DNA from: Spirochaetia bacterium
GTDB taxonomy: Bacteria; Spirochaetota; Spirochaetia; UBA9216
Direction of reading: 5' to 3'
Length of the DNA stretch: 64,000 nucleotides
NCBI GenBank assembly: GCA_963675665.1
Contig: OY776510.1
Coordinates: forward strand, 3,712,001-3,776,000
Shown here: piece after piece, positions 41,808-64,000 of the stretch
Layout: the number at the start of each line of letters is the position of its first letter
Numbering within the stretch: position 1 is the first letter of the stretch
Notes under the pieces: model-generated
Told to the model about the DNA's origin: nothing
Databases searched by the model: none
Seen by the model: the letters and a program-made list of their open reading frames with translations, nothing else
Program-made: the position numbers and the translations under genes

Positions 41808-43151
41808 TTATTTTCCGTAAATAGCACTGTTTATCAGGTTCTCATACAGTTCCTGTTTCCCGCTCAGCATGGCAGGCTCCGCGGTTTCCGCCGCAAGATC
41901 ACGCAGCTGTTCAAGACTGTAATTGCCTTTTTCAAATTCAGATCCATTGCCCGAATCGTATGATGCATAGCGCTTCTTTAGCATTGACGGAATTTTGCCT
42001 TCGTTCTTGATTTTATACGCTGCCTCAAGACCAAGTGCAAAGGCGTCCATTCCACCGATATGAGCAATAAAAAGATCTTCCGGGTCAGTAGAATTTCTTC
42101 TTCGCTTAGCATCAAAATTCAATCCGCCTTTTCCGAGTCCGCCGTTATCAAGCACAACCATCATAGCCCTGGTAGTTTCGTATACGTTAGTCGGAAATTG
42201 ATCGGTATCCCACCCATTCTGATAATCACCCTGGTTGGCGTCTATACTGCCCAGAAGCCCGGCGTCTACAGCTACCTGCAGATCATGCCAGAAGGTATGG
42301 CCTGCAAGTGTTGCATGGTTATTTTCTATATTGACGCGAAAATCCTTGTCCAGACCATTGGTTTTAATAAATGCCACAACGGTCTCAGTGTCATAATCAT
42401 ACTGGTGTTTGGTCGGTTCCATCGGCTTGGGCTCAATCATGAACTGGCCCTTAAATCCCATTTTCCGGCCGTAATCGCGGGCTGTTTCGAGCATTCTGAG
42501 AAGGTGTTCCTTTTCCCGTTTCATATTGGTGTTAAGAAGACTCATATAACCTTCGCGTCCGCCCCAAAAGACATAACCTTCACCGCCCAAATAAATAGTT
42601 GCATCAATTGCAGCCTTAATCTGAGCGGCAGCATAGGCAAGAACCTCAAAATTGGGATTGGTAAAAGCGCCGTTCATGTACCGTTCATGAGAAAAAAGAT
42701 TGGCAGTACCCCAGAGAAGATTCATCCCGGTAGCATCCTGCCTTTCCTTCGCCATTTCGACTATCGTCTGAAGATTTTTTTCCGTTTCGGCTACGTTTGC
42801 CCCTTCAGGTGCTATATCGCGATCATGAAAACAGTAATAAGGCGCATCTATTTTTGTGAAGAACTCAAAAGCTGCATCTACCTTGTCTTTTGCCTTATCC
42901 ATAGGATCCGACTTTTCATTCCAGGGGTAAAAGTGGGTTGTACCGCCGAAAGGATCTGTTCCGTCTCCGCAGAATGAATGCCAGTAGGCAATCGCAAACC
43001 TTAAATGTTCCTTCATTGTTTTTCCGCCGATCATTTTGTCGGGATCATAAAACTTGAATGCAAGCGGATTATCAGACTGCGAACCTTCAAACCTGACCTT
43101 GCCTATCCCGGGAAAATACTCCCTGTTACCAATAAAAAAATCTTTTGCCAT
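41808..43151 (-). CDS. xylA: Xylose isomerase (class II)
   Basis: [41 protein letters not shown]. Confidence 0.98.
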
Positions 43152-43157
43152 ATTAAT

Positions 43158-43253
43158 CTCCTATTTTTTCCGCCATGGATGGCGGTATGTATTTGAGTAA
43201 GTTTGCTTAAGCAAACTTCAGATTTAAAAATTACATGGAAGTAATTTTTAAAT
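43158..43253 (-). repeat. Three-hairpin intercistronic element, copy B
   Basis: On - strand ATTTAAAAATTAC-TTCCAT-GTAATTTTTAAAT; TGAAGTTTGC-TTAA-GCAAACTT; CCGCC-ATCCAT-GGCGG; then ATAGGAG SD of xylA. Confidence 0.75.
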
Positions 43254-44741
43254 AAACTTTGGTTTTAGCAGTTCAAGATACTGCTTGTACTCGTCATATA
43301 CTTGTTCGTATTCCTTAACCGAGGATGGATCAGGAAAAACGGTTTCTTCCTCTCTCAGCCTTATATGCTTATCCGTAATGTCCGACAGTTCCGAATGACT
43401 CTCCTCGGAATTCTTCAAAGCCCATAATGCCTGAAGCGCGGCGCCCAGCGCGGCAGCCTCTTCTTCAACAAGGGTAACAACCTTTGCGTTTAATGCATCC
43501 GCCGTGATTTTCCGCCACAGCGCGCTTTTTGCTCCGCCGCCGATAAGTCGAACCTCATTTGTTTTCACTCCAAGAGCTGCAAGCGACTCAAATCCAAGCT
43601 TCAAACCGAAAACAGCAGACTCCATTGAAGCGCGCATGATATTGGCTTCGGTCACATTATTCATGTTCATACCGGCAATTACGGCACGTCCGTTCGGAAG
43701 GCTGGGAGTCCTCTCGCCGCTGAAATACGGAAGCATAATTATTCCGCCTGCGCCGGGACCCGCAGATTCGGCTTTGGCATTGAGTTCGTCAAGCGGCATC
43801 TCAAACAGCGCCCGCATCTGCTCGGTCGCCACGGTACAGTTCATTGTACAAAGAAGCGGCAGCCAGCCGCCTGTGGATGAACAGAAAGCCGCAAGGTTTC
43901 CTTCCGGATCAATCAACGGATTGTCTCCGTATACATAGATTGTGCCTGATGTTCCGAGGCTCATCGTCAAAACGCCTTCCTGAACAGCACCTGTTCCCAC
44001 CGCACCCATCATGTTATCGCCGCCGCCGGTTGAAACGGGGATGCCTTCAGGTATCCCGAAATACGACGCTGCTTTTTGCGTAACGAAACCTGCCAGATCA
44101 TCAGCGTCCTTCAGTTCAGGAAGGCATGACAGCAAATCCCTGTCGGGATCAATTGCCCTTAGCACGTCTTTTGACCAGCAACGTTTTCGAACATCCAGAA
44201 AAGCCGTTCCCGAGGCATCGCCGTATTCAGCCGTATATTCGCCGGTCAGAATAAAGTTCATATAGTCATGCGGAAGCATGATATGAGCAAGCCTGGCATA
44301 AAGTTCAGGTTTGTTCTTTTTAAGCCAGAGCACTTTCGGCGCCGTGTATCCCGGCAGTACTTTGTTACCGGCTTTCTCAATAAGTTCAGCCTCGCCGCCG
44401 AACCGTTCCGTTATTTCCCTGCATTCCGCCGCCGTTGAAACATCATTCCACAGCTTGGCATTGTAAAGAGGTTTTCCGTCGGAGTCCGCCGGCACAAAAC
44501 CATGCTGCTGCCCGGAAACCCCGACAGCCCTTATCGTCTTTCTGATGCCTGGTTCAATTGAATCCGAACATATCTTTGCGGCTTCTATCCACCATTCAGC
44601 TTTCTGCTCGCTTGTTCCGTCAGCTTTTGTAATGATATCAAGCTTCTGCTGGGCCGTAGCTACTGTTTTCTTCGATTCGTAATCATAAACAAGGAACTTG
44701 ATGCTTTGAGTTCCCATATCGATTCCAAGAACCGTATTCAT
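43248..44741 (-). CDS. xylB: Xylulokinase
   Basis: LGIDMGTQS, SGQQHG, GDASGT, GGGDN, GERTP, GGGAKS. Confidence 0.96.
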   Translation of the reverse strand: MNTVLGIDMGTQSIKFLVYDYESKKTVATAQQKLDIITKADGTSEQKAEWWIEAAKICSDSIEPGIRKTIRAVGVSGQQHGFVPADSDGKPLYNAKLWNDVSTAAECREITERFGGEAELIEKAGNKVLPGYTAPKVLWLKKNKPELYARLAHIMLPHDYMNFILTGEYTAEYGDASGTAFLDVRKRCWSKDVLRAIDPDRDLLSCLPELKDADDLAGFVTQKAASYFGIPEGIPVSTGGGDNMMGAVGTGAVQEGVLTMSLGTSGTIYVYGDNPLIDPEGNLAAFCSSTGGWLPLLCTMNCTVATEQMRALFEMPLDELNAKAESAGPGAGGIIMLPYFSGERTPSLPNGRAVIAGMNMNNVTEANIMRASMESAVFGLKLGFESLAALGVKTNEVRLIGGGAKSALWRKITADALNAKVVTLVEEEAAALGAALQALWALKNSEESHSELSDITDKHIRLREEETVFPDPSSVKEYEQVYDEYKQYLELLKPKFI

Positions 44742-46352: not shown

Positions 46353-46424
46353 GCCAGAATAGCTCAGCGGTAGAGCAGCTCACTCGTAATGAGCAGGTCT
46401 GGGGTTCAATTCCCCATTCTGGCT
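46353..46424 (+). tRNA. tRNA-Thr(CGT)
   Basis: GCCAGAA/TTCTGGC acceptor stem, GCTC/GAGC D arm, GCTCA-CTCGTAA-TGAGC anticodon arm, TGGGG-TTCAATT-CCCCA T arm; CCA not encoded. Confidence 0.96.
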
Positions 46425-46907
46425 TTTTCCAAAGCCCGCCTTGTTATTGATAACCAAATTTTATTCTTTTTCGTAATGACGCAGGTAGAGCAATTTACAG
46501 CGGAGCCGGCACGGCGCAGATGGAAATTGCTCCGGGTTCCAATTCCCCATTCTGGCTTGATGGGCAGACGGTTTTTATATCCCTGGTTCGTGCTCACTCG
46601 TAATGACGCAGGTAGAGCAATTTACAGCGGAGCCGGCACGGCGCAGGTGGAAATTGCTCCGGGTTCCAATTCCCCATTCTGGCTTGATGGGCAGACGGTT
46701 TTTATATCCCTGGTTCGTGCTCACTCGTAATGACGCAGGTAGAGCAATTTACAGCGGAGCCGGCACGGCGCAGGTGGAAATTGCTCCGGGTTCCAATTCC
46801 CCATTCTGGCTTTTTCCAAAGCCCGCCTTGTTATTGATAACCAAATTTTATTCTTTCTCGTAATGACGCAGGTAGAGCAATTTGCAGCGGAGCCGGCACG
46901 GCGCAGA
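46425..46907 (+). repeat. tRNA-derived repeat/spacer array (3 full plus 1 partial unit)
   Basis: Units begin TCGTAATGACGCAGGT at 46471, 46598, 46725 and 46858 and end AATTCCCCATTCTGGCT (the tRNA 3' end). Spacer order is A,B,B,A. Confidence 0.9.
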
Positions 46908-47795
46908 TTATTGTCTCAAATCGGATACAAGATCCCCAAGCAGATCGGCTGTAACAGCCCCGTTTCTTACTGAATGGATTTTCCCGGTCAGGTTGATTAT
47001 GAATGTGGTCGGAACTGTTGAGATCCTGTAGGCTTCTGCAACTGTACCTGCTGAATCGAACAGAACGGGAAAATTCAGCCGGTTCTCCTCAAGATATCTC
47101 TTTATGTTTTCCGGATCAGATTCAGTTGAATACAAATTAACGGACAGAAAGACAACTTCCTCTTCATTGATCCCGGCAGCAAACTCAACAAGTTCAGGCA
47201 TTTCGGCACGGCAGGGAGGACACCAGCTTGCCCAGAAATTCAGCACTACTGTTTGCCCTCTGTAATTCGAAAGCCGGAAAATTTTTCCATTCTCATCTTG
47301 AAGGCTGAAATCAGGGGCTGCATCTCCTTCGACAACTGAGATTGGTGCATTCCAGGCCGTTTTTTTATTAATAAAAAACATGCCGCTCCCGAGCAAAATA
47401 AAAAGTACAGCAAAAACCGTAATATTCAAAACAAGGGCTTTCACGGCCTCTTTACGGCCTTTCTTTTGCCGTAAAAGGGCTGCCGAGGCATATACTGCAG
47501 CAACGCCTGAAGCCGCAAAAAGACCTGTCTTTCCGCCGGGCAGGTAAAGAATCGCGGCAGGATTGCTTAATACCGTTGAAAATTGAAATATAAGCGGAGA
47601 CAACTTCCATACTGCTATAACGATGAAAAATATATTAAACAGAATTTTATCGGCACGCCCGAGAAGTTCTTTCCTGTCTTTATACAGGAACCTGATAACA
47701 ATAGAATACATAACCAGGCAGAGAAAAAATACGATCACCCCTGCCGGGATATTAAGGGGACCTATTGAAATTGTCTGTCCGAGCGAATTTAACAT
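46908..47795 (-). CDS. TlpA-family thiol:disulfide oxidoreductase with N-terminal membrane domain
   Basis: APDFSL, NFWASWCPPCRAEMP, VPTTFII. Confidence 0.9.
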   Translation of the reverse strand: MLNSLGQTISIGPLNIPAGVIVFFLCLVMYSIVIRFLYKDRKELLGRADKILFNIFFIVIAVWKLSPLIFQFSTVLSNPAAILYLPGGKTGLFAASGVAAVYASAALLRQKKGRKEAVKALVLNITVFAVLFILLGSGMFFINKKTAWNAPISVVEGDAAPDFSLQDENGKIFRLSNYRGQTVVLNFWASWCPPCRAEMPELVEFAAGINEEEVVFLSVNLYSTESDPENIKRYLEENRLNFPVLFDSAGTVAEAYRISTVPTTFIINLTGKIHSVRNGAVTADLLGDLVSDLRQ

Positions 47796-49903: not shown

Positions 49904-52717
49904 TTGAAGATTAAAAGTTTAATTTATTTGATAACAGGTATTTTTATATTTACCATACTCACCTCCTGCCCTTCTCCGCTTGAACCTGAAAAGCTTGCTT
50001 TGCTTAAGGATCTTGAAGCACCCAGGATTGTCATTACATCTCCGGCCGACTACAGCGAATACGCCACAGTTATCGAGCTTGAAGGCTATATTGAAGATAC
50101 ATCTCTTGCAAACCTGCCGGCCGACAGCGGGCTATCCGTTTCATACAGCATTCCCGGAACAAGCATCAACGGGACTGTTGATGTTAGTCTTCCCGACGGT
50201 TCTTTTTCGGGAATCATTAATGTGGCCGCGCTCAGCGGAGAAAAGGTGATTGAATTCAGCACTACTGATATAAACGGAAATTCAGCTTCTGCGTCTGTAA
50301 ATATTCTCAAACCTGAAGGTGGAGATATCTCCGGATTCACAGTCACGCCCGGCAACAGACAGGTAACAATATGCTGGGCCCCTGTTTCCGGCGCAGAGTC
50401 ATATTCGATATTTGAGTCGTCATACGGAGAGACTATAGAACCCGGAGAGATAACCGGAACAAGCTATACCTGGACCGGTCTTGAAAACGGCGAGATATAC
50501 AGCTTTCAGCTTACCGCGCACCTGCCCGTCGGAATCGGTGAAGATGCGTATTCCTCGACGGCTACAACAATGCCGCTTTCTCCCTTTAACCTCACTCCGG
50601 TGATAAAGAATACCGAACATAAAGCAATAACCATTGAATGGCCTGCTAATGATAATATCGACCGGTTCATCGTTGAACGCAGCGGCAGCCATCTCGGTCC
50701 ATGGGAAATAAAAAGGGTACTGACTCAAAATGTATTTACCGACGAAAAAGTTGAATACGATACTAACTACTATTACAGGATTACTCCTTCCGGCTTTACA
50801 GAGATAAACAGCCTCTGCGCCGGGAGCAGCCCCACCAGGTTCTCAGGTGACGATATCATCGCTACTTTGCCGTTGCCGGGCTCAATCACGCCCTTCTCGC
50901 TGCAAATCGATGATAACTATGCCTATATTGCAAACTTCAGAGACGGTTTAGCGATTGCTGATATATCGGACCCATACAATCCGATTATTGTTTCAAGTTA
51001 CGGCGTGGCTTCCACAGTGGAGATACGGGACATTTTCGTGAGAGACCGTATTGCATATCTTGCCGGTTATGACGACGGCCTTCTTCTTGTCGACATATCC
51101 GATATTGACAACCCCGTACTTCTATCCTCATGCAGCACACCCGGCAACGCGTTGGGAGTATATGTTTCCGGCGATTATGCGTATATAGCCGATGATTCTG
51201 AAAGAATATCTATCGTCGACATCTCAACCCCGGCTTCGGTAACAGACAGCTCATTGATATCCGGCTGCAGCACCGACGGGATTGCGGACAAAGTCCTTGT
51301 AAAGAACGGTTACGCCTATGTGGCTGCCGACGGGCTGGAGGTAATTGATGTATCCAATCCTCCGCTTGTAAATGATCTTTCAACAAAGGGAAGCTGGAGC
51401 AGCCTGGACGGAAAAATAAGCAAGGATATATACATCTCCGGTGAATATCTGTATATAGTGCTTCAACCCCCGCCTCCCGGCATTCCCCCGGGTCCGAGTT
51501 CCCTGCATATAATCGATATTTCAGTCCCTGCGAATGTAACGAACTCATCCGGTGTCGGCAGCTGTGAAATCTTAGGAAACGCGGAAGGCGTTACAGTATC
51601 CGGAAATCTCGCATACGTAGCATCATATGACGCCGATTTGCAGGTAATCGATGTATTTAATCCGGCAGCGCCGGTATTGGAAAGGACATACGCCACCTCC
51701 GGCGACCCGTTTGATGTAAAGGTTTCCGGTTATTACGCATATATCGCAGATCGCTACGGCAGCGGCCTCGTTGTATTGGATCTTGCAAAGCCCGGATCAC
51801 CTTCAATTGTTTCCGCTTCTGCGGACATGTACCGGACAAGCGATATAGAAATATTCGACGAATATGCCTATATTGCCGACGGCACTGACGGGTTAAAGAT
51901 TATGGATATATCCGAACCGGAAGAGATCTCACCGGCCTCCAATATTATTGAGTTTTCTCTCCCCGGCGAATGTCTTGAAATTAATATCCGCTATCCCTAT
52001 GCTTTTATAGCGGCACAGGGCTCAGGGCTTGTTGTCGTAAATATTGCTGATCCGCTTCATCCGTCCCTGCTTAGCAGCACTGAAACAACCCAGAATGCTA
52101 AGGATTTATATGTGCTGGGAAATTATGCATATGTTACGGACAGCGGATGCAGTCTTGAAATAATCGACATCACATTTCCGGAAACTCCTTCCATAGTTTC
52201 CACATGCGACACCGACGGGACTGTAAGCGGCATCACCGTATCCGGTGATTACGCATATATTTGCGCCGGAGGAAGCGGGCTTCAAATCATAGATATCTCC
52301 GATCCGCTCAGTCCGTATATTGCCGCATCCTGTACAAGCGCGGGAGGGGCGAGAAAAGCTGAAATCATCGGCAATTACGCCGTTGTCTCTTCAAATAGCG
52401 CAGGATTATATATTATTGATATTTCCGACCCGTCCGGAGTTACAAACACATCTATTGTAGCCAGCCATCCCGTAACAGGTCACGGATACAGCCTTGCAAT
52501 TGCCGGCGATTTTGTCTATGTCGGCGGAGACGAACGTTTCACGGTTGTGGATATAACCGACCCCGAATCTCCCTCAACCTTTTCCGGCTGCGCGCTGCCG
52601 ACACTCGGTATCGGCTACGGAATTGCCGTCGCAGACTCATACGCCTACATTGCAGACATTAATAGCGGACTTCAGATAATAAACCTCTTAGGAGGAATGA
52701 TAAAAAGTCCTCCATGA
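49904..52717 (+). CDS. Lipoprotein with Ig/FN3 domains and LVIVD beta-propeller repeats
   Basis: LTSC lipobox; FN3-like segments; about 14 repeats of YAYIA..GL.IIDIS.P. C-terminal GMIKSPP is encoded by the inserted mini-element. Confidence 0.88.
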   Translation: MKIKSLIYLITGIFIFTILTSCPSPLEPEKLALLKDLEAPRIVITSPADYSEYATVIELEGYIEDTSLANLPADSGLSVSYSIPGTSINGTVDVSLPDGSFSGIINVAALSGEKVIEFSTTDINGNSASASVNILKPEGGDISGFTVTPGNRQVTICWAPVSGAESYSIFESSYGETIEPGEITGTSYTWTGLENGEIYSFQLTAHLPVGIGEDAYSSTATTMPLSPFNLTPVIKNTEHKAITIEWPANDNIDRFIVERSGSHLGPWEIKRVLTQNVFTDEKVEYDTNYYYRITPSGFTEINSLCAGSSPTRFSGDDIIATLPLPGSITPFSLQIDDNYAYIANFRDGLAIADISDPYNPIIVSSYGVASTVEIRDIFVRDRIAYLAGYDDGLLLVDISDIDNPVLLSSCSTPGNALGVYVSGDYAYIADDSERISIVDISTPASVTDSSLISGCSTDGIADKVLVKNGYAYVAADGLEVIDVSNPPLVNDLSTKGSWSSLDGKISKDIYISGEYLYIVLQPPPPGIPPGPSSLHIIDISVPANVTNSSGVGSCEILGNAEGVTVSGNLAYVASYDADLQVIDVFNPAAPVLERTYATSGDPFDVKVSGYYAYIADRYGSGLVVLDLAKPGSPSIVSASADMYRTSDIEIFDEYAYIADGTDGLKIMDISEPEEISPASNIIEFSLPGECLEINIRYPYAFIAAQGSGLVVVNIADPLHPSLLSSTETTQNAKDLYVLGNYAYVTDSGCSLEIIDITFPETPSIVSTCDTDGTVSGITVSGDYAYICAGGSGLQIIDISDPLSPYIAASCTSAGGARKAEIIGNYAVVSSNSAGLYIIDISDPSGVTNTSIVASHPVTGHGYSLAIAGDFVYVGGDERFTVVDITDPESPSTFSGCALPTLGIGYGIAVADSYAYIADINSGLQIINLLGGMIKSPP

Positions 52718-52802
52718 CTTTTTATCATTTTGAAGTTTACAAACTTTGTTTGAAAACTTCACTATTCATTACCTGCATCCATGCAGGAATTTCTTATAGG
52801 AG
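52695..52802 (+). mobile_element. 108-bp mini-element with IS110-like ends; three-hairpin element copy C
   Basis: Begins GAATGATAAAAAGTC (identical to the IS left end) after TTAGGAG and ends AATTTCTTATAGGAG (12/15 match to the IS right end). Confidence 0.65.
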
Positions 52803-52827
52803 GAATGATAAAAAGTCTTCATGAGCT

Positions 52828-52980
52828 GGTGAATTGATATACTGCCTTAACTTTAATTGAGGCAGTAAGGTTACTGTTCGACATTTTTACTGGTCCGCGA
52901 GACCGTTTAGGAGATTGAAGAGCCGTAACCGAAACATTCAATGGTCTGCGAGACCGGATAGGAGAATGGAACAATTCACC
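52828..52980 (+). ncRNA. Predicted bridge RNA (IS110 copy 1)
   Basis: Closing stem GGTGAATTG/CAATTCACC, 5' hairpin ACTGCC/GGCAGT, and two homologous loops each capped by GGTC-N-GCGA-GACC and followed by TAGGAG. Confidence 0.8.
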
Positions 52981-53015
52981 GTATAGGCACTGCTTCAAAC
53001 TATTGGAGATAGAAC

Positions 53016-54128
53016 ATGAAGATGAGTATTGGCGTGGATCTTCACAAAACGCAGTTTACAGTATGCCTTTTAAGTGAAGACCGAAAAATTGATCAATTGG
53101 GAATGTATCCGACCAGCGGAAATGGTTATGGAGCATTTCTGAAAATGCTGGATGAATATTGTGAAGAGGAATATGAGTTGAGAGCAGCGGTGGAAACAAC
53201 CGGGAATGCCCGTTATTTCCGCAATAAACTGTTAAAGGCTGGAGTCGAAGTGGTTGTAGTGAATACTTTGAAATTCAAGGTAGTGAATGAATCTGTAAAA
53301 AAGACAGACAAACATGATGCACGCACCCTGGCGGAGTTTCTTGAGAAAGACATGCTGCCTGAATCGATATTATGTTCCCAAGAGAGTGAGGATATTCGAA
53401 GGGTGCTGAAATCCAGGTCGATACTGGTAAAATCTGTTGTGTCGTTAAAGAACCAGGTGCATGGCTTATTACTTGGTTATGGAATAGAGACCAAACGCGG
53501 ACAGCTGCAGAGTAAAAAAGAAAGGCAGCGAATCCTGAACGGTCTCGAGGACCACGACTTTTACGGAAGCGCTGCCAAAACGGTAATACCGTTACTGGAT
53601 ATGATAGATAATCAGGCATCGCAAGTCAAGCAGCTTGAAAAGGTTTTGGCTGAGCTTGTGGAGGACGATGAAGATGTTGAGCTTCTGCAGACAATACCAG
53701 GCGTGGGTCTAATAACAGCAGCAACAGTAAGAGCCTATACAGACGATATCGGCAGATATGATAGTGCGAAGAAATATGCAGCAAACGCCGGGCTTGTGCC
53801 ATGGGTGCAGAACTCAAATATGACAATACATCATGGACATATAACAAAGCGTGGGCCTGTAGAACTGAGGACAGCCTTCGTACAGATGGTGATGGGAATG
53901 GTTCGTATGCAAAAGAAGACCGGGACGTACCGAATAATGACGAAGTATGCAGCGATGAAGAAGCAGAAAGGCTCGGGTAAGAGTGTAATAGCTGCCGCCC
54001 GCAAGATGAGCACTTTGGTATATACAATTTTAAAAACCAGAGAGCCGTTTGATCCGATGAAAATGGCTTTTAGAAAAGAATACAGGGAAATGCAGGCAGC
54101 AGCATGGGAAGCTGTAATGGTCGGTTGA
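53016..54128 (+). CDS. IS110-family DEDD recombinase/transposase
   Basis: IGVDLHK, VETTG, KTDKHDA, IPGVG, AGLVPWVQNS, HITKRG. Confidence 0.96.
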   Translation: MKMSIGVDLHKTQFTVCLLSEDRKIDQLGMYPTSGNGYGAFLKMLDEYCEEEYELRAAVETTGNARYFRNKLLKAGVEVVVVNTLKFKVVNESVKKTDKHDARTLAEFLEKDMLPESILCSQESEDIRRVLKSRSILVKSVVSLKNQVHGLLLGYGIETKRGQLQSKKERQRILNGLEDHDFYGSAAKTVIPLLDMIDNQASQVKQLEKVLAELVEDDEDVELLQTIPGVGLITAATVRAYTDDIGRYDSAKKYAANAGLVPWVQNSNMTIHHGHITKRGPVELRTAFVQMVMGMVRMQKKTGTYRIMTKYAAMKKQKGSGKSVIAAARKMSTLVYTILKTREPFDPMKMAFRKEYREMQAAAWEAVMVG

Positions 54129-54191
54129 TATCCGACTAGATCATAAGCTTATATTTTTAGCTTGTGGTTGACTTTTTATAGGAGAATAAAT

Positions 54192-56381
54192 ATGAAAAAA
54201 GGATTTCAAACAATAAAAACAATACTTTTTGCGGGACTCATCCTGCTACTGACTACCCTGCTTCCCCTCACTGCATTCTCCCAAAGCGGGGAAGTCGATT
54301 TAAACGAATATTACGCCTACCCGGTTTCCGCCGGGGCTTATTATCATCAGCTTTCGGGGCTGGGCAACAAAGCCCTTGCCGACTTCAGCATAAATGAGAT
54401 TTCCAGCGAAGCGCGCGTGCCGATTCCCGGTATTCCCGTACTGCAGCCGCTTGTCAGGGCCGGATACCTTAGCTACGGTTTTACCGGCAGCGTTGAAGAA
54501 CTGCACCAGGACTGGACACATTTTCATGTCTTCGGCGGGCCGGGCGTTGCCTACTGTTCCCGTATATCACGCGAATTCGAAATCGGCGCTGATCTTTTCG
54601 GGGCGCTGACACAGTCATATTTTACGGAACTGGTTTTCAACGGCGTCCAGGAAACACAGGGGCAATTGAATATACTGGCAGGACTGTCGGGGCGTCTTGC
54701 CTTGAATCCGTCCTATAATTTTTCCATATCGGTTAACCCGGCGCTGAATTACCTGTACGGGCTCGGCCCGCTGCATGATTACGACGGATTTACGTTCGGG
54801 GTCGGCTTTTCGGGTACATACCGCTTCGGACAGGACCCCGACGCGGCGCAGTCTTCAATAAAGGCGATACGTTTCGACGATGTTGATCTGCCTCCGCTGT
54901 TTGCCGCGATGCAGAGTTACTATGTAAAAAACCCGGCGGGAACGCTGACAATTTCCAACAAGGAAAAATACACGCTTGAAGGCGTCTCCCTGTCATTTAT
55001 GCAGCCGGGATTCATGGATTCGCCGAGCCCTATGGCGTCGGATATTGTTCTTGAGCCGGGCGAGAGTATAGAGGTCCCCATCACCCTGACTTTTAATAAC
55101 GAGGTTTTTTCAACCCAGGGGGTCACCCCGCTTACAGGCGAAATAATCGCAGGTTATACCGTACGCGGGCGCGAGGTTGAGCAGAGACAGTCGGTTACCT
55201 ACGATCTGCATGATCGCAACGCCCTTACGTGGGACGACGACCGGAAGGCCGCCGCATTTATTACAGCCCAGGACAGCGCCGTCCGCAACTATTCAAGCTA
55301 TATCCGCCAGATTCACCGCGACGCGGTCAGACCTTATATCAGCAGCAACCTTCAGTTTGCCATGCAGGTATTCAACGCCCTCGGCGAACTGGGCATTCTG
55401 TACCAGATTGATCCGACCGCTCCGTTTACCGAGGTCCAGGGCGACACCTTCGTCGTCGACTCAATCAGCCTGCCCCGCGAAACGCTAAAACGGCTGACCG
55501 GCGACTGCGACGATCTTACAGTACTTTTCTGCACAATGCTTGAATCAATCGGCATCGAATCCGCGCTGGTTACCGTTCCGGGACATATCTTCTGCGCTTT
55601 CAACACCGATGTTGAGTCTTCGGACTACATGATGATAAACCCCGACCGCAACCAGATAATCGAAGTTGACGGCAACATCTGGATACCGGTTGAAATTACA
55701 ATGATAGGAAAACACAGCTTTACGGAAGCCTGGAACAAGGGATACTCGGAATTCGCGGAATGGGACGCCGAACCCGACCGCAGGGGTTTTTATAAAACCG
55801 GCGATGCACAGGGCATATTCCGGCCTGTAGTCCTGCGCGAAACCGATCTTGGGCTTCAGTACGGAGACGATGAGGCGGTTGTTTCGGCATTTGAAAAGGA
55901 CCTTGATTCCCTGTCGCAGTCAATCTTAAAACCTGCCAAAGCCGACGCTGAGGCAAAAGGCACCCCGAAAGCCTGGAATTCCTACGGGGTAGCCGCGGCA
56001 AAACTCGGCGCGTACGGCACTGCGGAAACCGCCTTTGACAAGGCCGTAAAATCAAAACCCGATTACACAAGCGCCAAGCTGAACCTCGGCTCACTGTATT
56101 ACATAATGGAAAAATATTCAGATGCGTTTAAAGTTTACCAGAATATCGAACAGAATGCCGCAAACCTGAATATTTCCGACCGTACCATGTTCAATCTTTA
56201 CCTTAACATGAGCAAAACAAGCTATGCTCTTGAGAAAAATGACGAGGCTGATTCCTATTTCCGCAAAGCCACTCAGCTTGACGCTGATAAAGCCGCCGAT
56301 TTCGCCTACCTCGGCACAGGCGGTACAGGTGTCGCAAGAGCTGCCGAGGCTGCTGACAGTAAGATATCGTTTTTTGAATAG
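54192..56381 (+). CDS. Exported protein with transglutaminase-like and TPR domains
   Basis: Signal peptide; GDCDD, VPGHIF, WIPVEIT; C-terminal TPR helices. Confidence 0.8.
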   Translation: MKKGFQTIKTILFAGLILLLTTLLPLTAFSQSGEVDLNEYYAYPVSAGAYYHQLSGLGNKALADFSINEISSEARVPIPGIPVLQPLVRAGYLSYGFTGSVEELHQDWTHFHVFGGPGVAYCSRISREFEIGADLFGALTQSYFTELVFNGVQETQGQLNILAGLSGRLALNPSYNFSISVNPALNYLYGLGPLHDYDGFTFGVGFSGTYRFGQDPDAAQSSIKAIRFDDVDLPPLFAAMQSYYVKNPAGTLTISNKEKYTLEGVSLSFMQPGFMDSPSPMASDIVLEPGESIEVPITLTFNNEVFSTQGVTPLTGEIIAGYTVRGREVEQRQSVTYDLHDRNALTWDDDRKAAAFITAQDSAVRNYSSYIRQIHRDAVRPYISSNLQFAMQVFNALGELGILYQIDPTAPFTEVQGDTFVVDSISLPRETLKRLTGDCDDLTVLFCTMLESIGIESALVTVPGHIFCAFNTDVESSDYMMINPDRNQIIEVDGNIWIPVEITMIGKHSFTEAWNKGYSEFAEWDAEPDRRGFYKTGDAQGIFRPVVLRETDLGLQYGDDEAVVSAFEKDLDSLSQSILKPAKADAEAKGTPKAWNSYGVAAAKLGAYGTAETAFDKAVKSKPDYTSAKLNLGSLYYIMEKYSDAFKVYQNIEQNAANLNISDRTMFNLYLNMSKTSYALEKNDEADSYFRKATQLDADKAADFAYLGTGGTGVARAAEAADSKISFFE

Positions 56382-61105: not shown

Positions 61106-61852
61106 TCAATCTGACGGATTTGCCCGCTGTCTTCTCAATTCTTCGCACATGATTTCATGACACTTCAACGCAAGCACGGCAGGATCGGAACCTTTTTCAA
61201 CTTCAACAGGCGGCATTACATGCATGTGCAGAATAAATACCCCGTTTACAATAATACCGCTTTTCGGAAGCGCCTGATACGCGCCGTCGAGCAGCACAGG
61301 AAGGACCGGAGTGCCTGTTCCTGTTGCGGATCTGAACGCTCCCTTTTTAAAATCGGCTATCTCACCATTGCGGGTTCTTGTTCCTTCAGGATACACAAGC
61401 AAAGAGTCCCCATAGTTCAACAACGCTTCCATTTTTCTTATTGCCTCAAACTGGCTCTTGCGGCTTTTCCTGTCCACAAACAGGTGTCCGCCTATTACCA
61501 GGTTCCATCCCAGAAAAGGTACTCTTGACAGTACTTTCTTACCGATCATCTTGCATGGATAAAACAGAATGAAAGACAAAAGAATATCCAGAAGCGACTG
61601 ATGGTTCATAACTACAACATGGGCTTTTGATCTGTCCAGATTCTCACGACCTGTAACCTTAACCCTGAAAACAGGGCTGATAAACAGGGCAAAACGGGCA
61701 AATGCCGAACCAATGTAATGTACTGCATGTCTTTTTTTATCAAATGCAAAGGTAAAAAGAAAAACAACCGCCTGAATCGGTGTATAAATTATAAAGAGCA
61801 GAAATATCTCAGCCCATGTAAAAATCGAAGCTGCAGCATATAAAAAATACAT
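61106..61852 (-). CDS. plsC: 1-acyl-sn-glycerol-3-phosphate acyltransferase
   Basis: NHQSLLD, FVDR, YPEGTRT, FKKGAF. Confidence 0.88.
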   Translation of the reverse strand: MYFLYAAASIFTWAEIFLLFIIYTPIQAVVFLFTFAFDKKRHAVHYIGSAFARFALFISPVFRVKVTGRENLDRSKAHVVVMNHQSLLDILLSFILFYPCKMIGKKVLSRVPFLGWNLVIGGHLFVDRKSRKSQFEAIRKMEALLNYGDSLLVYPEGTRTRNGEIADFKKGAFRSATGTGTPVLPVLLDGAYQALPKSGIIVNGVFILHMHVMPPVEVEKGSDPAVLALKCHEIMCEELRRQRANPSD

Positions 61853-61914
61853 CTTAATCTCCTATAAAAAGTCAACCACAAGCTAAAAATATAAGCTTAT
61901 GATCTGGTCGGATA

Positions 61915-63027
61915 TCAACCGACCATTACAGCTTCCCATGCTGCTGCCTGCATTTCCCTGTATTCTTTTCTAAAAGCCATTTTCATCGGATCAAACGGCT
62001 CTCTGGTTTTTAAAATTGTATATACCAAAGTGCTCATCTTGCGGGCGGCAGCTATTACACTCTTACCCGAGCCTTTCTGCTTCTTCATCGCTGCATACTT
62101 CGTCATTATTCGGTACGTCCCGGTCTTCTTTTGCATACGAACCATTCCCATCACCATCTGTACGAAGGCTGTCCTCAGTTCTACAGGCCCACGCTTTGTT
62201 ATATGTCCATGATGTATTGTCATATTTGAGTTCTGCACCCATGGCACAAGCCCGGCGTTTGCTGCATATTTCTTCGCACTATCATATCTGCCGATATCGT
62301 CTGTATAGGCTCTTACTGTTGCTGCTGTTATTAGACCCACGCCTGGTATTGTCTGCAGAAGCTCAACATCTTCATCGTCCTCCACAAGCTCAGCCAAAAC
62401 CTTTTCAAGCTGCTTGACTTGCGATGCCTGATTATCTATCATATCCAGTAACGGTATTACCGTTTTGGCAGCGCTTCCGTAAAAGTCGTGGTCCTCGAGA
62501 CCGTTCAGGATTCGCTGCCTTTCTTTTTTACTCTGCAGCTGTCCGCGTTTGGTCTCTATTCCATAACCAAGTAATAAGCCATGCACCTGGTTCTTTAACG
62601 ACACAACAGATTTTACCAGTATCGACCTGGATTTCAGCACCCTTCGAATATCCTCACTCTCTTGGGAACATAATATCGATTCAGGCAGCATGTCTTTCTC
62701 AAGAAACTCCGCCAGGGTGCGTGCATCATGTTTGTCTGTCTTTTTTACAGATTCATTCACTACCTTGAATTTCAAAGTATTCACTACAACCACTTCGACT
62801 CCAGCCTTTAACAGTTTATTGCGGAAATAACGGGCATTCCCGGTTGTTTCCACCGCTGCTCTCAACTCATATTCCTCTTCACAATATTCATCCAGCATTT
62901 TCAGAAATGCTCCATAACCATTTCCGCTGGTCGGATACATTCCCAATTGATCAATTTTTCGGTCTTCACTTAAAAGGCATACTGTAAACTGCGTTTTGTG
63001 AAGATCCACGCCAATACTCATCTTCAT
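61915..63027 (-). CDS. IS110-family DEDD recombinase/transposase
   Basis: Protein identical to 53016..54128. Confidence 0.96.
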   Translation of the reverse strand: MKMSIGVDLHKTQFTVCLLSEDRKIDQLGMYPTSGNGYGAFLKMLDEYCEEEYELRAAVETTGNARYFRNKLLKAGVEVVVVNTLKFKVVNESVKKTDKHDARTLAEFLEKDMLPESILCSQESEDIRRVLKSRSILVKSVVSLKNQVHGLLLGYGIETKRGQLQSKKERQRILNGLEDHDFYGSAAKTVIPLLDMIDNQASQVKQLEKVLAELVEDDEDVELLQTIPGVGLITAATVRAYTDDIGRYDSAKKYAANAGLVPWVQNSNMTIHHGHITKRGPVELRTAFVQMVMGMVRMQKKTGTYRIMTKYAAMKKQKGSGKSVIAAARKMSTLVYTILKTREPFDPMKMAFRKEYREMQAAAWEAVMVG

Positions 63028-63062
63028 GTTCTATCTCCAATAGTTTGAAGCAGTGCCTATAC

Positions 63063-63215
63063 GGTGAATTGTTCCATTCTCCTATCCGGTCTCGCAGACC
63101 ATTGAATGTTTCGGTTACGGCTCTTCAATCTCCTAAACGGTCTCGCGGACCAGTAAAAATGTCGAACAGTAACCTTACTGCCTCAATTAAAGTTAAGGCA
63201 GTATATCAATTCACC
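63063..63215 (-). ncRNA. Predicted bridge RNA (IS110 copy 2)
   Basis: Reverse complement of 52828-52980. Confidence 0.8.
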
Positions 63216-64000
63216 AGCTCATGAAGACTTTTTATCATTCCTCCTATAAAATACAGGCGCGAACCGAAGTCTCCTACAAGCCTCGTTTTTTCGGTGTAGC
63301 CCGTTCCGGTGAATTGATGGTAAGGTCTTATTCCAGCGAACATCAGTTCGTCGCCGAAAGCTTCAAATTCCTCTACCTCGTTTTCCAACATATAGTTATT
63401 GCTGATAACAGTGTGAAGAATACCGTCGGCCTTCAGCTTTATCGGGCTGATATGATTTACCAGATTACCGAATGCACGGATATTCACATACTGTCTTCTT
63501 GTTATAACTTTATACATCATATCCGGTTCAAGGCCAACAGTTTTAAGCTGCTCAAAACCTCCGTTTGGTTTCTGCAGAATCTGGTAATAACCGAGAACGG
63601 CATTTTTTTTATCTTTGCTTACAGTAATCCATAACGGCTGGTTATCTGAAAACGGAGATTTTAACCGGTAAAAATCTCCGTACTGAAAGAGGCTGCGCCG
63701 GCTTTTATAGTCGGTTATCTGCTGTTTTATTGTTTTCTTTTCAAAATTGGAAAGTTTCGTCAGATCCAGTTCATAGCCCAGAAGACCGAAAGCTGCAACA
63801 TTGAATCTTGTCTCAAGAGGCGTATTACGCAGTACCTGATGCGAAGGCGCGGCGCTTACGTGCGCCCCCATTACCGACGGCGGGTATACCATTGAAGTAC
63901 CGTACTGAATACTGATTCTTTCAACCGCGTCGGTATTGTCGCTTGTCCAGGTCTGGGGCATATAGTACAGCATTCCGAGATCAAAGCGGTTTCCGCCGCT
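63206..64000 (-). CDS. GH36 alpha-galactosidase, 5'-truncated by the window; C-terminus altered by the IS
   Basis: SGGNRFDLGMLYYMPQTWTSDNTDA, GAHVS, LGYELDL, GDFYRL, GDFGSRL. Confidence 0.92.
   Translation of the reverse strand, partial: SGGNRFDLGMLYYMPQTWTSDNTDAVERISIQYGTSMVYPPSVMGAHVSAAPSHQVLRNTPLETRFNVAAFGLLGYELDLTKLSNFEKKTIKQQITDYKSRRSLFQYGDFYRLKSPFSDNQPLWITVSKDKKNAVLGYYQILQKPNGGFEQLKTVGLEPDMMYKVITRRQYVNIRAFGNLVNHISPIKLKADGILHTVISNNYMLENEVEEFEAFGDELMFAGIRPYHQFTGTGYTEKTRLVGDFGSRLYFIGGMIKSLHELVN

Follow-up and report, generated by a model that had tools for sequence, protein, structure and literature searches.

A Spirochaetia IS110-family element with a predicted two-loop guide RNA that lies between Shine-Dalgarno sequences and start codons

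Introduction

IS900, an IS110-family insertion sequence of Mycobacterium avium subsp. paratuberculosis, reportedly targets translation-initiation signals, a finding credited to Doran et al. 1997. Its transposase gene is said to lie antisense to the target gene, so that the hed open reading frame (ORF) uses host signals. IS900 is a precedent for the targeting of translation starts, so targeting of this kind is not new as such. Here we describe an IS110-family element that is present twice in a 64,000-nt stretch of a Spirochaetia bacterium genome (contig OY776510.1 of assembly GCA_963675665.1, positions 3,712,001 to 3,776,000; hereafter the window). Its copies lie between the Shine-Dalgarno (SD) sequence and the ATG start codon of host genes. 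A preliminary description of the window proposed that the element's guide RNA is programmed to translation-initiation regions, and the analysis presented here supports this interpretation in substance.

RNA-guided targeting in the IS110 family was established in 2024, and the requirement for the RNA was shown experimentally (Durrant et al. 2024, PMC11208160; PMC11187229). The seekRNA of IS1111-type elements (ISEc11, ISPa11, ISKpn4) has an order of guides within its loops that is reversed relative to the bridge RNA of IS621 (Siddiquee et al. 2024, PMC11187229). The IS1111 type is also characterized by sub-terminal inverted repeats and by ends that extend beyond these repeats by 7 bp (left) and 3 bp (right) (PMC11187229). 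The repeats are given as 7-17 bp in one account (PMC11208160) and as usually 11-13 bp in the other (PMC11187229). ISMtsp17 is a reported exception with an upstream non-coding region among the IS1111 type, and circle junctions are described as creating promoters in IS110-family elements (PMC11187229). A separate set of sequences from Treponema denticola, TD-1 and TD-2, was described as candidate structured RNAs without an assigned function; TD-1 is located 5' to genes (Weinberg et al. 2007, PMC1950547).

Results

Every genomic copy lies between a Shine-Dalgarno sequence and an ATG

The two copies in the window form a near-identical inverted repeat of 1396 nt with two mismatches, counted by eye (Table 1). 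Both are preceded by TTATAGGAG and end in TATAGGAG, which is followed by AATAAATATG at copy 1 and by ATTAAGATG at copy 2. The sequence after the right end reads AATAAAT-ATG at copy 1 and ATTAAG-ATG at copy 2, and the ORFs 3' of the two copies match Pfam TPR and Pfam Acyltransferase (ORF 61109-61852), respectively. This is the arrangement given in the preliminary description, which had placed both copies a few nucleotides before start codons. Within the element, the transposase gene is preceded by 213 nt and followed by 56 nt of non-coding sequence. Under the IS1111 convention, in which the crossover dinucleotide AG is given to the left end, copy 1 would be placed at 52801-54182.

The host genome (5.15 Mb, one contig) was scanned for copies of the element and contains 15 full copies and one 28-nt fragment. 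All 15 are exactly 1382 bp long and show 0-1 differences from the window copy; the sole variable site is element position 1335, with C in eight copies and T in seven. Each of the 15 copies lies directly after AGGAG, is followed by an ATG 5-7 nt downstream and is co-oriented with the gene. The spacer between AGGAG and ATG measures 6 nt in 12 copies, 5 nt in two and 7 nt in one. In every case the right end TATAGGAG is restored at the original distance from the ATG, as expected from the earlier statement that the 3' gene keeps its ribosome-binding site (RBS). The left flank is TTATAGGAG in 9 of the 15 copies and TTTTAGGAG, ATTTAGGAG, TTAAAGGAG, AATTAGGAG or ATAAGGAG in the other six. The preliminary description had regarded copies away from TAGGAG or from start codons as evidence against its proposal; the outcome favours the proposal, with all 15 copies lying between an SD sequence and an ATG.

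These values were compared to free sites in the same genome. An ATG is present 5-7 nt downstream of 825 of the 6549 free AGGAG sites (12.6%), 107 of the 525 free T[AT][AT]AGGAG sites and 28 of the 77 free TTATAGGAG sites (36%). Outside a crude ORF mask, which covers 90% of the genome, such an ATG follows 163/403 [AT]3AGGAG sites (40%) and 21/33 TTATAGGAG sites (64%). Occupation of 15/15 sites against these background rates indicates that neither the sequence context nor the simple survival of intergenic insertions explains the site rule. Occupied sites were also compared to 417 free [AT][AT]AGGAG sites with an ATG 4-9 nt downstream. A 6-nt spacer is found in 12/15 occupied and 132/417 free sites, and AT or TT at positions -7 and -6 in 13/15 occupied and 135/417 free sites. 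The occupied spacers resemble the guide described below at 3.07 of five positions, compared to 1.84 of five for the free sites, and none of 20000 resamples reaches the occupied value.

Transposase and relatives

The transposase matches Pfam DEDD_Tnp_IS110 (PF01548, E 9e-18) and Transposase_20 (PF02371, E 1e-17). It scores 216.8 bits, with a cut-off of 140, against the NCBIfam model NF033542, 'IS110 family RNA-guided transposase'. By these matches the protein is assigned as an IS110-family RNA-guided enzyme. The sole solved relatives in a PDB search were the ISCro4 and IS621 transposases, with the match confined to residues 202-348, and identity to the ISEc11 transposase is 22.9% over residues 96-353 only. 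The PDB and plasmid searches left the subgroup of the transposase unsettled.

Protein-guided scans supplied 80 loci from genomes and 80 from metagenomes. A transposase match was re-found in 175 loci, a recognisable left end in 156 of them, and 139 elements were used for co-variation. The elements left out were 16 loci below 45% identity, mainly a Lentisphaeria-like group with a left end 3 nt longer, and L075, which is without a left end. Nearly all of the 139 start with G[ACT][ACG][TC]GATAAAAAG and finish with TTGACTTTTTATAGGAG. Sets of several copies came from a Syntrophales genome (9 copies), an Oceanispirochaeta genome (10 copies) and Candidatus Marispirochaeta associata.

A few relatives show arrangements of their own. 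At L154 a second element copy begins 8 nt (GCACAGAG) past the end of the first, which is a tandem insertion, and the right end of L045 shows a tandem duplication of its final 29 nt. A distant branch (L078-L095, a Lentisphaeria genome and relatives, 32-40% identity) is also located after (A)AAGGAG and has the loop-1 3' guide GGAAAGGAG. Its left end is seemingly 3 nt longer (ATGGTATGATAAATAG), and the search pattern used did not detect a right end.

A conserved two-loop RNA structure is predicted upstream of the transposase gene

The 213-nt region 5' of the transposase gene folds in the sense direction with a free energy of -64.2 kcal/mol (z -4.45 compared to shuffled sequences), and the antisense strand reaches z -2.28. 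A consensus fold of 86 distinct relatives contains 30 pairs, 20 of which show compensatory changes. These cover the closing stem of loop 1, both distal hairpins and a long-range helix; in the loop-2 hairpin, 38 GC-to-AU and 31 UA-to-CG changes were counted among the relatives. The two aligned loops that the preliminary description had noticed at 52879-52913 and 52930-52964 are present at these positions and hold the guides of the target loop (loop 1) and the donor loop (loop 2). No Rfam family matched the non-coding region of the guide RNA at the thresholds used, so no curated bridge-RNA model was among the matches. Antisense transcription of the guide RNA was also considered and was rejected on the fold statistics; it would not restore the IS621 geometry either.

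The target loop co-varies with the landing site

The 3' guide of loop 1 was compared to the left half of the target in 115 unique insertions with 30 distinct guides. It equals the target at positions -7 to -1 in 83, 94, 97, 98, 99, 100 and 99% of the insertions, respectively, and agreement drops to 30% at -8 and 17% at -9. For positions -8 to -6, the mean number of guide/target matches is 2.07 compared to 1.15 after permutation, and 0/5000 permutations reach the observed value; the permutation figures in this section are indicative. The result is unchanged when each guide class is counted once. Guide GTACAGGAG is found with the flank ..ACAGGAG in 9/10 Oceanispirochaeta copies, guide GCAAAGGAG with ..AAAGGAG in 8/9 Syntrophales copies, and guide GTCGAGGAG goes with ..CAGAGGAG.

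The right half was analyzed with the 5' guide of loop 1, which occurs in 53 distinct forms among 115 unique insertions. In the window element it is the 10-mer CATTTTTACT, whose reverse complement is AGTAAAAATG. An ATG is present 4-9 nt past AGGAG in 97 of the 103 unique insertions whose guide has a CAT at its 5' end. Among the 12 others an ATG is found in two, one of which (L152) has its CAT moved by one inserted base. Guide and target agree at 2.46 of the five bases that precede the ATG, compared to 1.96 after permutation (z 6.7), with the signal mainly at -1 to -3. Registers anchored at the junction with an overlap of 2, 1 or 0 nt all score above permutation, and an overlap of 1 nt, corresponding to the 6-nt spacer, scores best. 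The preliminary description had read loop 1 as specifying TTTAGGAG followed by AAAAATG. Its general sense, an SD sequence, an A-rich spacer and an ATG, stands; its details drop three guide bases and imply a 4-nt spacer, whereas the real spacers are 6, 5 or 7 nt.

Changed guides are accompanied by changed targets. Other loop-1 guides, such as GCCACGGAG, GGCACGGAG, GCAGGGGAG and GCTAGGGAG, are carried by eleven metagenomic relatives (53-57% protein identity), which sit in matching CACGGAG-type or GGGAG-type repeats, not in ribosome-binding sites. In the left half, 8 of the 10 with a full flank match at 7/7 positions and the other two at 6/7; L158 was left out of this count, its sequence beginning 3 nt before the left end. 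The right flank of L167, GCACAGA, equals guide positions 3-9 beside an AG core, and others match at a shift of 1-2 nt. The co-variation of loop-1 guides with flanks that had been suggested as a check of the original proposal is thus present across the 115 insertions.

A separate observation concerns L071, from a Leptospira metagenome-assembled genome. Its loop-1 3' guide is GGTTGAGAG and its left flank ..TTTAGAG, both without GGAG. The 5' guide has no CAT start, and there is no start codon near the right flank.

The donor loop co-varies with the element ends

The 5' side of loop 2 and the first five bases of the element are reverse complements at 5/5 positions in 130/139 elements. Seven left-end pentamers were found (GAATG, GCACG, GAACG, GTATG, GCATG, GAGTG and GTACG), each with a perfectly matching guide. 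The 3' side of loop 2 equals the last seven bases, ATAGGAG, in 128/133 elements, and one relative has ATAGAAG in the donor guide and the right end alike. This co-variation bears out the earlier suggestion that loop 2 matches the circle junction ATAGGAG/GAATG.

When the two ends of the window element are joined computationally, the junction reads TTGACT-17-TAAAAA preceded by TG. We infer that TTGACT-17-TGnTAAAAA is a promoter-like site that would exist only in a circle.

The joined ends also bring the sub-terminal inverted repeats together. These are a perfect 10 bp, ATAAAAAGTC and GACTTTTTAT, and are separated by 10 nt in the joined form. This gap fits the 7 + 3 extensions of the IS1111 type only if the crossover is at the final AG of AGGAG, which is the position that we infer.

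Host genes and orthologous loci

A terminator-like site was searched for after the transposase gene, and none was found. Transcription from a host promoter could therefore plausibly continue through the guide RNA and the transposase gene into the host gene. The gene upstream of copy 2, which encodes a GH36 (melibiase-family) protein, now reads about 35 nt into the element (63206-63240, minus strand), and its C-terminus is altered. In two same-genus genomes the GH36-acyltransferase pair is uninterrupted, with the GH36 gene ending just before the acyltransferase start codon. The preliminary description had called translation-initiation regions a safe harbour. The restoration of the SD sequence by the right end in 15/15 copies agrees with this, and the changed GH36 C-terminus at copy 2 does not.

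At the sites orthologous to the copy at genome position 1349702, G001 has TTAGGAG-AGTAAA-ATG, which is close to the guide's own reading. G004 and G003 have a simple SD sequence, and a TD-like repeat is found at the same place in G005, with traces in G003. A DNA search for the element in the same-genus genomes G001, G003 and G004 did not find it.

A low-depth contig (sequencing runs X1 and X3; depth 7.9 and 5.1) joins 52835 to 54165 with TGTTTA between them. The joint combines the first 33 nt of the element with its last 20 nt and hinted at a 59-nt deletion derivative; no such short form was found in the assembled genome.

TD-2-like repeats share the ends and the target rule of the element

Copy 1 directly follows a repeat (52695-52802) that contains three hairpins, starts with the element's first 15 bases, GAATGATAAAAAGTC, and ends in TTATAGGAG. 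The Rfam model TD-2 (RF03162) matches it at 52695-52788 with 44.7 bits, below the cut-off of 48.7. In the genome the repeat is 113 nt long and gave 59 blastn hits, at least 11 of them near full length. Scoring of 150 candidates with TD-2 gave 33 hits, all in reverse complement, of which 18 were above the cut-off. GGAG, 4-9 nt and a start codon follow 23 of the 33. The repeats also form head-to-tail arrays, with six units at 1652349-1652894 and three at 2973058-2973369.

The repeats lie between (A/T)GGAG and a spacer with ATG, and their ends read GAATGATAAAA.. on the left and ..TTATAGGAG on the right. An empty-site pair shows gataAGGAG/113 nt/ttaagttagATG in the host genome and gataAGGAGttaacttaaATG in the G005 orthologue (89% protein identity), and the repeat is missing from relatives at two further loci, including the six-unit array. 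Element-like ends, a shared target rule and presence or absence at orthologous sites are what is looked for in miniature inverted-repeat transposable elements, and all were found. The motif GGAGGAATGATAAAA occurs 20 times in G004 and 10 times in G001, same-genus genomes in which no copy of the element was found. Its nine occurrences in the Syntrophales genome equal the number of element copies taken from that genome (L018-L026).

Like TD-1 (PMC1950547), the 113-nt repeats are located 5' to genes. Unlike the published TD-1 and TD-2, which were described as candidate structured RNAs, they carry element-like ends, follow the insertion rule and are missing from the corresponding sites of relatives. 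A literature search found no paper that calls TD-1 or TD-2 mobile. The repeats are probably miniature derivatives that use the element's end junction and target rule, and their mobilisation by its transposase is putative.

Other features of the window

An unoccupied candidate site was noted in front of a 447-aa ORF (Table 1). The preliminary description had named it the xylA RBS. The site ATAGGAGATTAATATG is present, and the ORF has only a below-cut-off match to a xylose-isomerase-like TIM barrel. A tRNA gene was found at 46353-46424 (Rfam, 70.6 bits), with about four 127-nt direct repeats (46398-46908) overlapping its 3' part.

Table 1. Positions of the element, its guide RNA and associated features in the window.
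Feature	Position	Strand	Basis or remark
Insertion sequence copy 1	52803..54184	+	1382 bp with the shared AGGAG counted once; boundaries at the point of flank divergence
Insertion sequence copy 2	61859..63240	-	In front of an acyltransferase (plsC-like) gene; inverted repeat and sequence
Left target half, copy 1 (TTATAGGAG, host SD sequence)	52794..52802	+	
Right target half, copy 1 (AATAAAT and ATG of TPR gene)	54185..54194	+	8/10 positions match AGTAAAAATG aligned right after AGGAG
Left sub-terminal inverted repeat ATAAAAAGTC	52808..52817	+	10-bp perfect match to right-end reverse complement, at equal distance from both ends
Right sub-terminal inverted repeat GACTTTTTAT	54170..54179	+	Kept in most relatives
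-35-like TTGACT in right end	54168..54173	+	Would lie 17 nt from TG-n-TAAAAA (52806-52814, left end) once circularised
Bridge/seek RNA core (predicted)	52828..52980	+	Outer helix GGTGAATTG (52828-52836) / CAATTCACC (52972-52980) around a hairpin and two guide loops
Target loop 5' guide CATTTTTACT	52882..52891	+	CAT/ATG association, spacer co-variation
Target-loop distal hairpin GGTC-CGCGA-GACC	52892..52904	+	Compensatory changes in 4/5 pairs (alignment columns 136-140/148-152)
Target loop 3' guide GTTTAGGAG	52905..52913	+	Sense of left target half; would pair with bottom strand
Donor loop 5' guide CATTCAAT	52935..52942	+	CATTC complementary to the element's first bases GAATG
Donor loop 3' guide GGATAGGAG	52956..52964	+	Sense of the element's last bases ATAGGAG
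Transposase gene, 370 aa	53016..54128	+	Pfam, NCBIfam and PDB matches
TD-2-like repeat, 108 nt	52695..52802	+	Directly upstream of copy 1; after AGGAG (52690-52694)
TD-2 element	43169..43257	-	Rfam 51.1 bits, above the 48.7 cut-off; precedes the unoccupied site 43149-43164
Unoccupied candidate site ATAGGAGATTAATATG (ATAGGAG-ATTAAT-ATG)	43149-43164	-	Sequence

Discussion

We consider it very likely that this is an active or recently active IS110-family element and that a two-loop RNA guides its insertion between the SD sequence and the ATG. In the proposed mechanism, the RNA would be produced from the 213-nt region upstream of the gene and would guide the transposase. Copy number, site rule, conserved RNA structure and guide co-variation are observed here, whereas the circle, its junction promoter, host read-through and the exact point of crossover follow the mechanism published for the family. 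The target-loop guide CATTTTTACT would read the top strand of the A-rich spacer and the ATG. The donor-loop guide GGATAGGAG, together with CATTC, would read the joined ends of an excised circle, ...TATAGGAG/GAATG.... A short core shared within AGGAG, probably AG, would be the place of recombination, and the element would come to lie between the SD sequence and the start codon in the orientation of the gene. The right end TATAGGAG would give the gene an SD sequence at the original spacing. The new right junction would be a valid target again, so that serial insertions would be possible.

Several points weigh against this reading or against the IS1111-like placement of the element given below. 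The distance between AGGAG and ATG is variable at a fixed guide length (among the 115 insertions, 6 nt in 52, 5 nt in 17, 7 nt in 15 and 8 nt in eight), so no single contiguous pairing register can hold on the right-hand side. The spacer matches are modest, at 2.46 of five compared to 1.96 of five. In the host genome, 9/15 left flanks read ATAGGAG, which is a mismatch at -7 to the guide's TTAGGAG. The permutation tests take no account of the relatedness of the elements or of genome composition, and their figures are not exact probabilities. As for the placement, the IS1111 hallmarks are incomplete, with a non-coding region upstream of the transposase gene and not downstream. The sub-terminal repeats are 10 bp rather than the usual 11-13, and the ISEc11 transposase is just 22.9% identical.

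The weak spacer matches and variable spacing, together with the concentration of the strongest guide matches in the left half, are also what would be seen if the element recognised only xxAGGAG. The ATG would then reflect survival, with intragenic insertions lost and those in 5' untranslated regions (UTRs) tolerated, and most free AGGAG sites do lie in coding sequence according to the crude mask. This explanation is highly improbable. Free sites that are crudely non-coding have an ATG at 5-7 nt in 40-64% of cases, compared to 15/15 for the element, and the occupied sites are enriched for 6-nt spacing and guide-like spacers even when compared to the 417 free sites with an ATG. In addition, the CAT at the 5' end of the guide is kept in 103/115 insertions and is lost exactly in those relatives that do not land before an ATG. 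A proposal that dispenses with the RNA altogether, in which AGGAG and CATTC serve as binding sites on the DNA or are remnants of the element ends and site choice rests with the protein alone, gains something from the trivial fact that the guide segments repeat end and target sequences. We find it scarcely credible. The helices around the guides keep their pairing through compensatory changes in 20/30 pairs, the sense strand folds better than the antisense strand, and the guides change together with targets and ends. Moreover, the protein matches a family named for RNA-guided transposases, and the RNA requirement was shown for family members (PMC11208160, PMC11187229).

The last explanation considered is that the element targets the right end of the TD-2-like repeats, in the way that family members are reported to target REP (PMC11187229), and that the link to SD sequences is secondary to the location of the repeats in 5' UTRs. 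In agreement with it, TTATAGGAG, the left flank of 9/15 copies, is the usual right end of the 113-nt repeat, copy 1 adjoins a full repeat, and about 5/15 copies have a blastn-detectable repeat directly upstream. However, about 10/15 copies are without a detectable repeat, and a TD-2 match upstream at E<=0.05 is found in just 1/15. In the Syntrophales genome, GGAGGAATGATAAAA occurs only as often as the element copies (nine; L018-L026); all of these follow AAGGAG, and 8/9 have an ATG 4-8 nt downstream. The guide also co-varies with flank bases outside any repeat. We judge targeting of the repeats to be very unlikely.

The reading that the RNA directs the element to the SD-spacer-ATG arrangement can be extended to the repeats. 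An RNA-guided lineage may have adopted this arrangement as a self-renewing target and seeded TD-1 and TD-2 as miniature derivatives. These would have piled up in tandem in 5' UTRs as portable ribosome-binding sites for many genes, mobilised in trans by the same transposase and RNA via the ATAGGAG/GAATG junction. This extension is put forward tentatively, as a proposition that falls somewhat short of an even chance.

These results offer a mechanism, at the level of sequence, for the long-known insertion of some IS110-family elements between a ribosome-binding site and its start codon. They point to a natural RNA-guided recombinase aimed at a functional motif with hundreds of occurrences per genome (417 free candidate sites here) and not at one repeat, carried by an element that repairs what its insertion interrupts. 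A testable origin for the TD-1 and TD-2 motifs is also offered. Further points of interest are a target that renews itself, an architecture that mixes IS1111 and IS110 features, and a likely account of the TD motifs. No paper tying a bridge or seek RNA to the targeting of ribosome-binding sites was found in the full-text literature, supplements being outside the search, and a literature search found none linking IS900 to a bridge RNA. Such elements could already be contained in the supplementary target logos or covariation tables of the two papers from 2024 (PMC11208160, PMC11187229).

Membership of the element in the IS110 family is indicated by its DEDD and Transposase_20 domains, by its structured RNA with two loops, and by the co-variation of these loops with flanks and ends. 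As in IS621, the DEDD domain is combined with a C-terminal Transposase_20 domain, a structured RNA lies upstream of the gene, the first loop would read the target and the second the donor, and each loop would read both strands around a short core (PMC11208160). Unlike in IS621, the order of guides within the loops is reversed, and the sub-terminal repeats are 10 bp instead of 2-3 bp (PMC11208160). The preliminary description had spoken of a bridge RNA with target and donor loops, and on the order of guides it has to be revised: the order matches that of IS1111 and seekRNA.

In loop 1 the right flank is represented in antisense by the 5' guide and the left flank in sense by the 3' guide, which is the order of the IS1111 group. 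The element shares with this type the location of the top-strand complement 5' of the bottom-strand match, the sub-terminal inverted repeats and a junction promoter, which is predicted here. It differs in its target, where a functional signal of a generic kind takes the place of a repeat, an attC site or a transposon end. Guide order and repeats make the element IS1111-like, whereas the upstream position of its RNA gene is that of the IS110 group. This mixture of features, together with the natural reprogramming seen among the relatives, should be useful for understanding the evolution of bridge/seek RNA geometry. Unlike in IS900, with its reportedly antisense transposase gene, the transposase gene is co-oriented with the target gene, and the SD sequence is restored from the element's own end.

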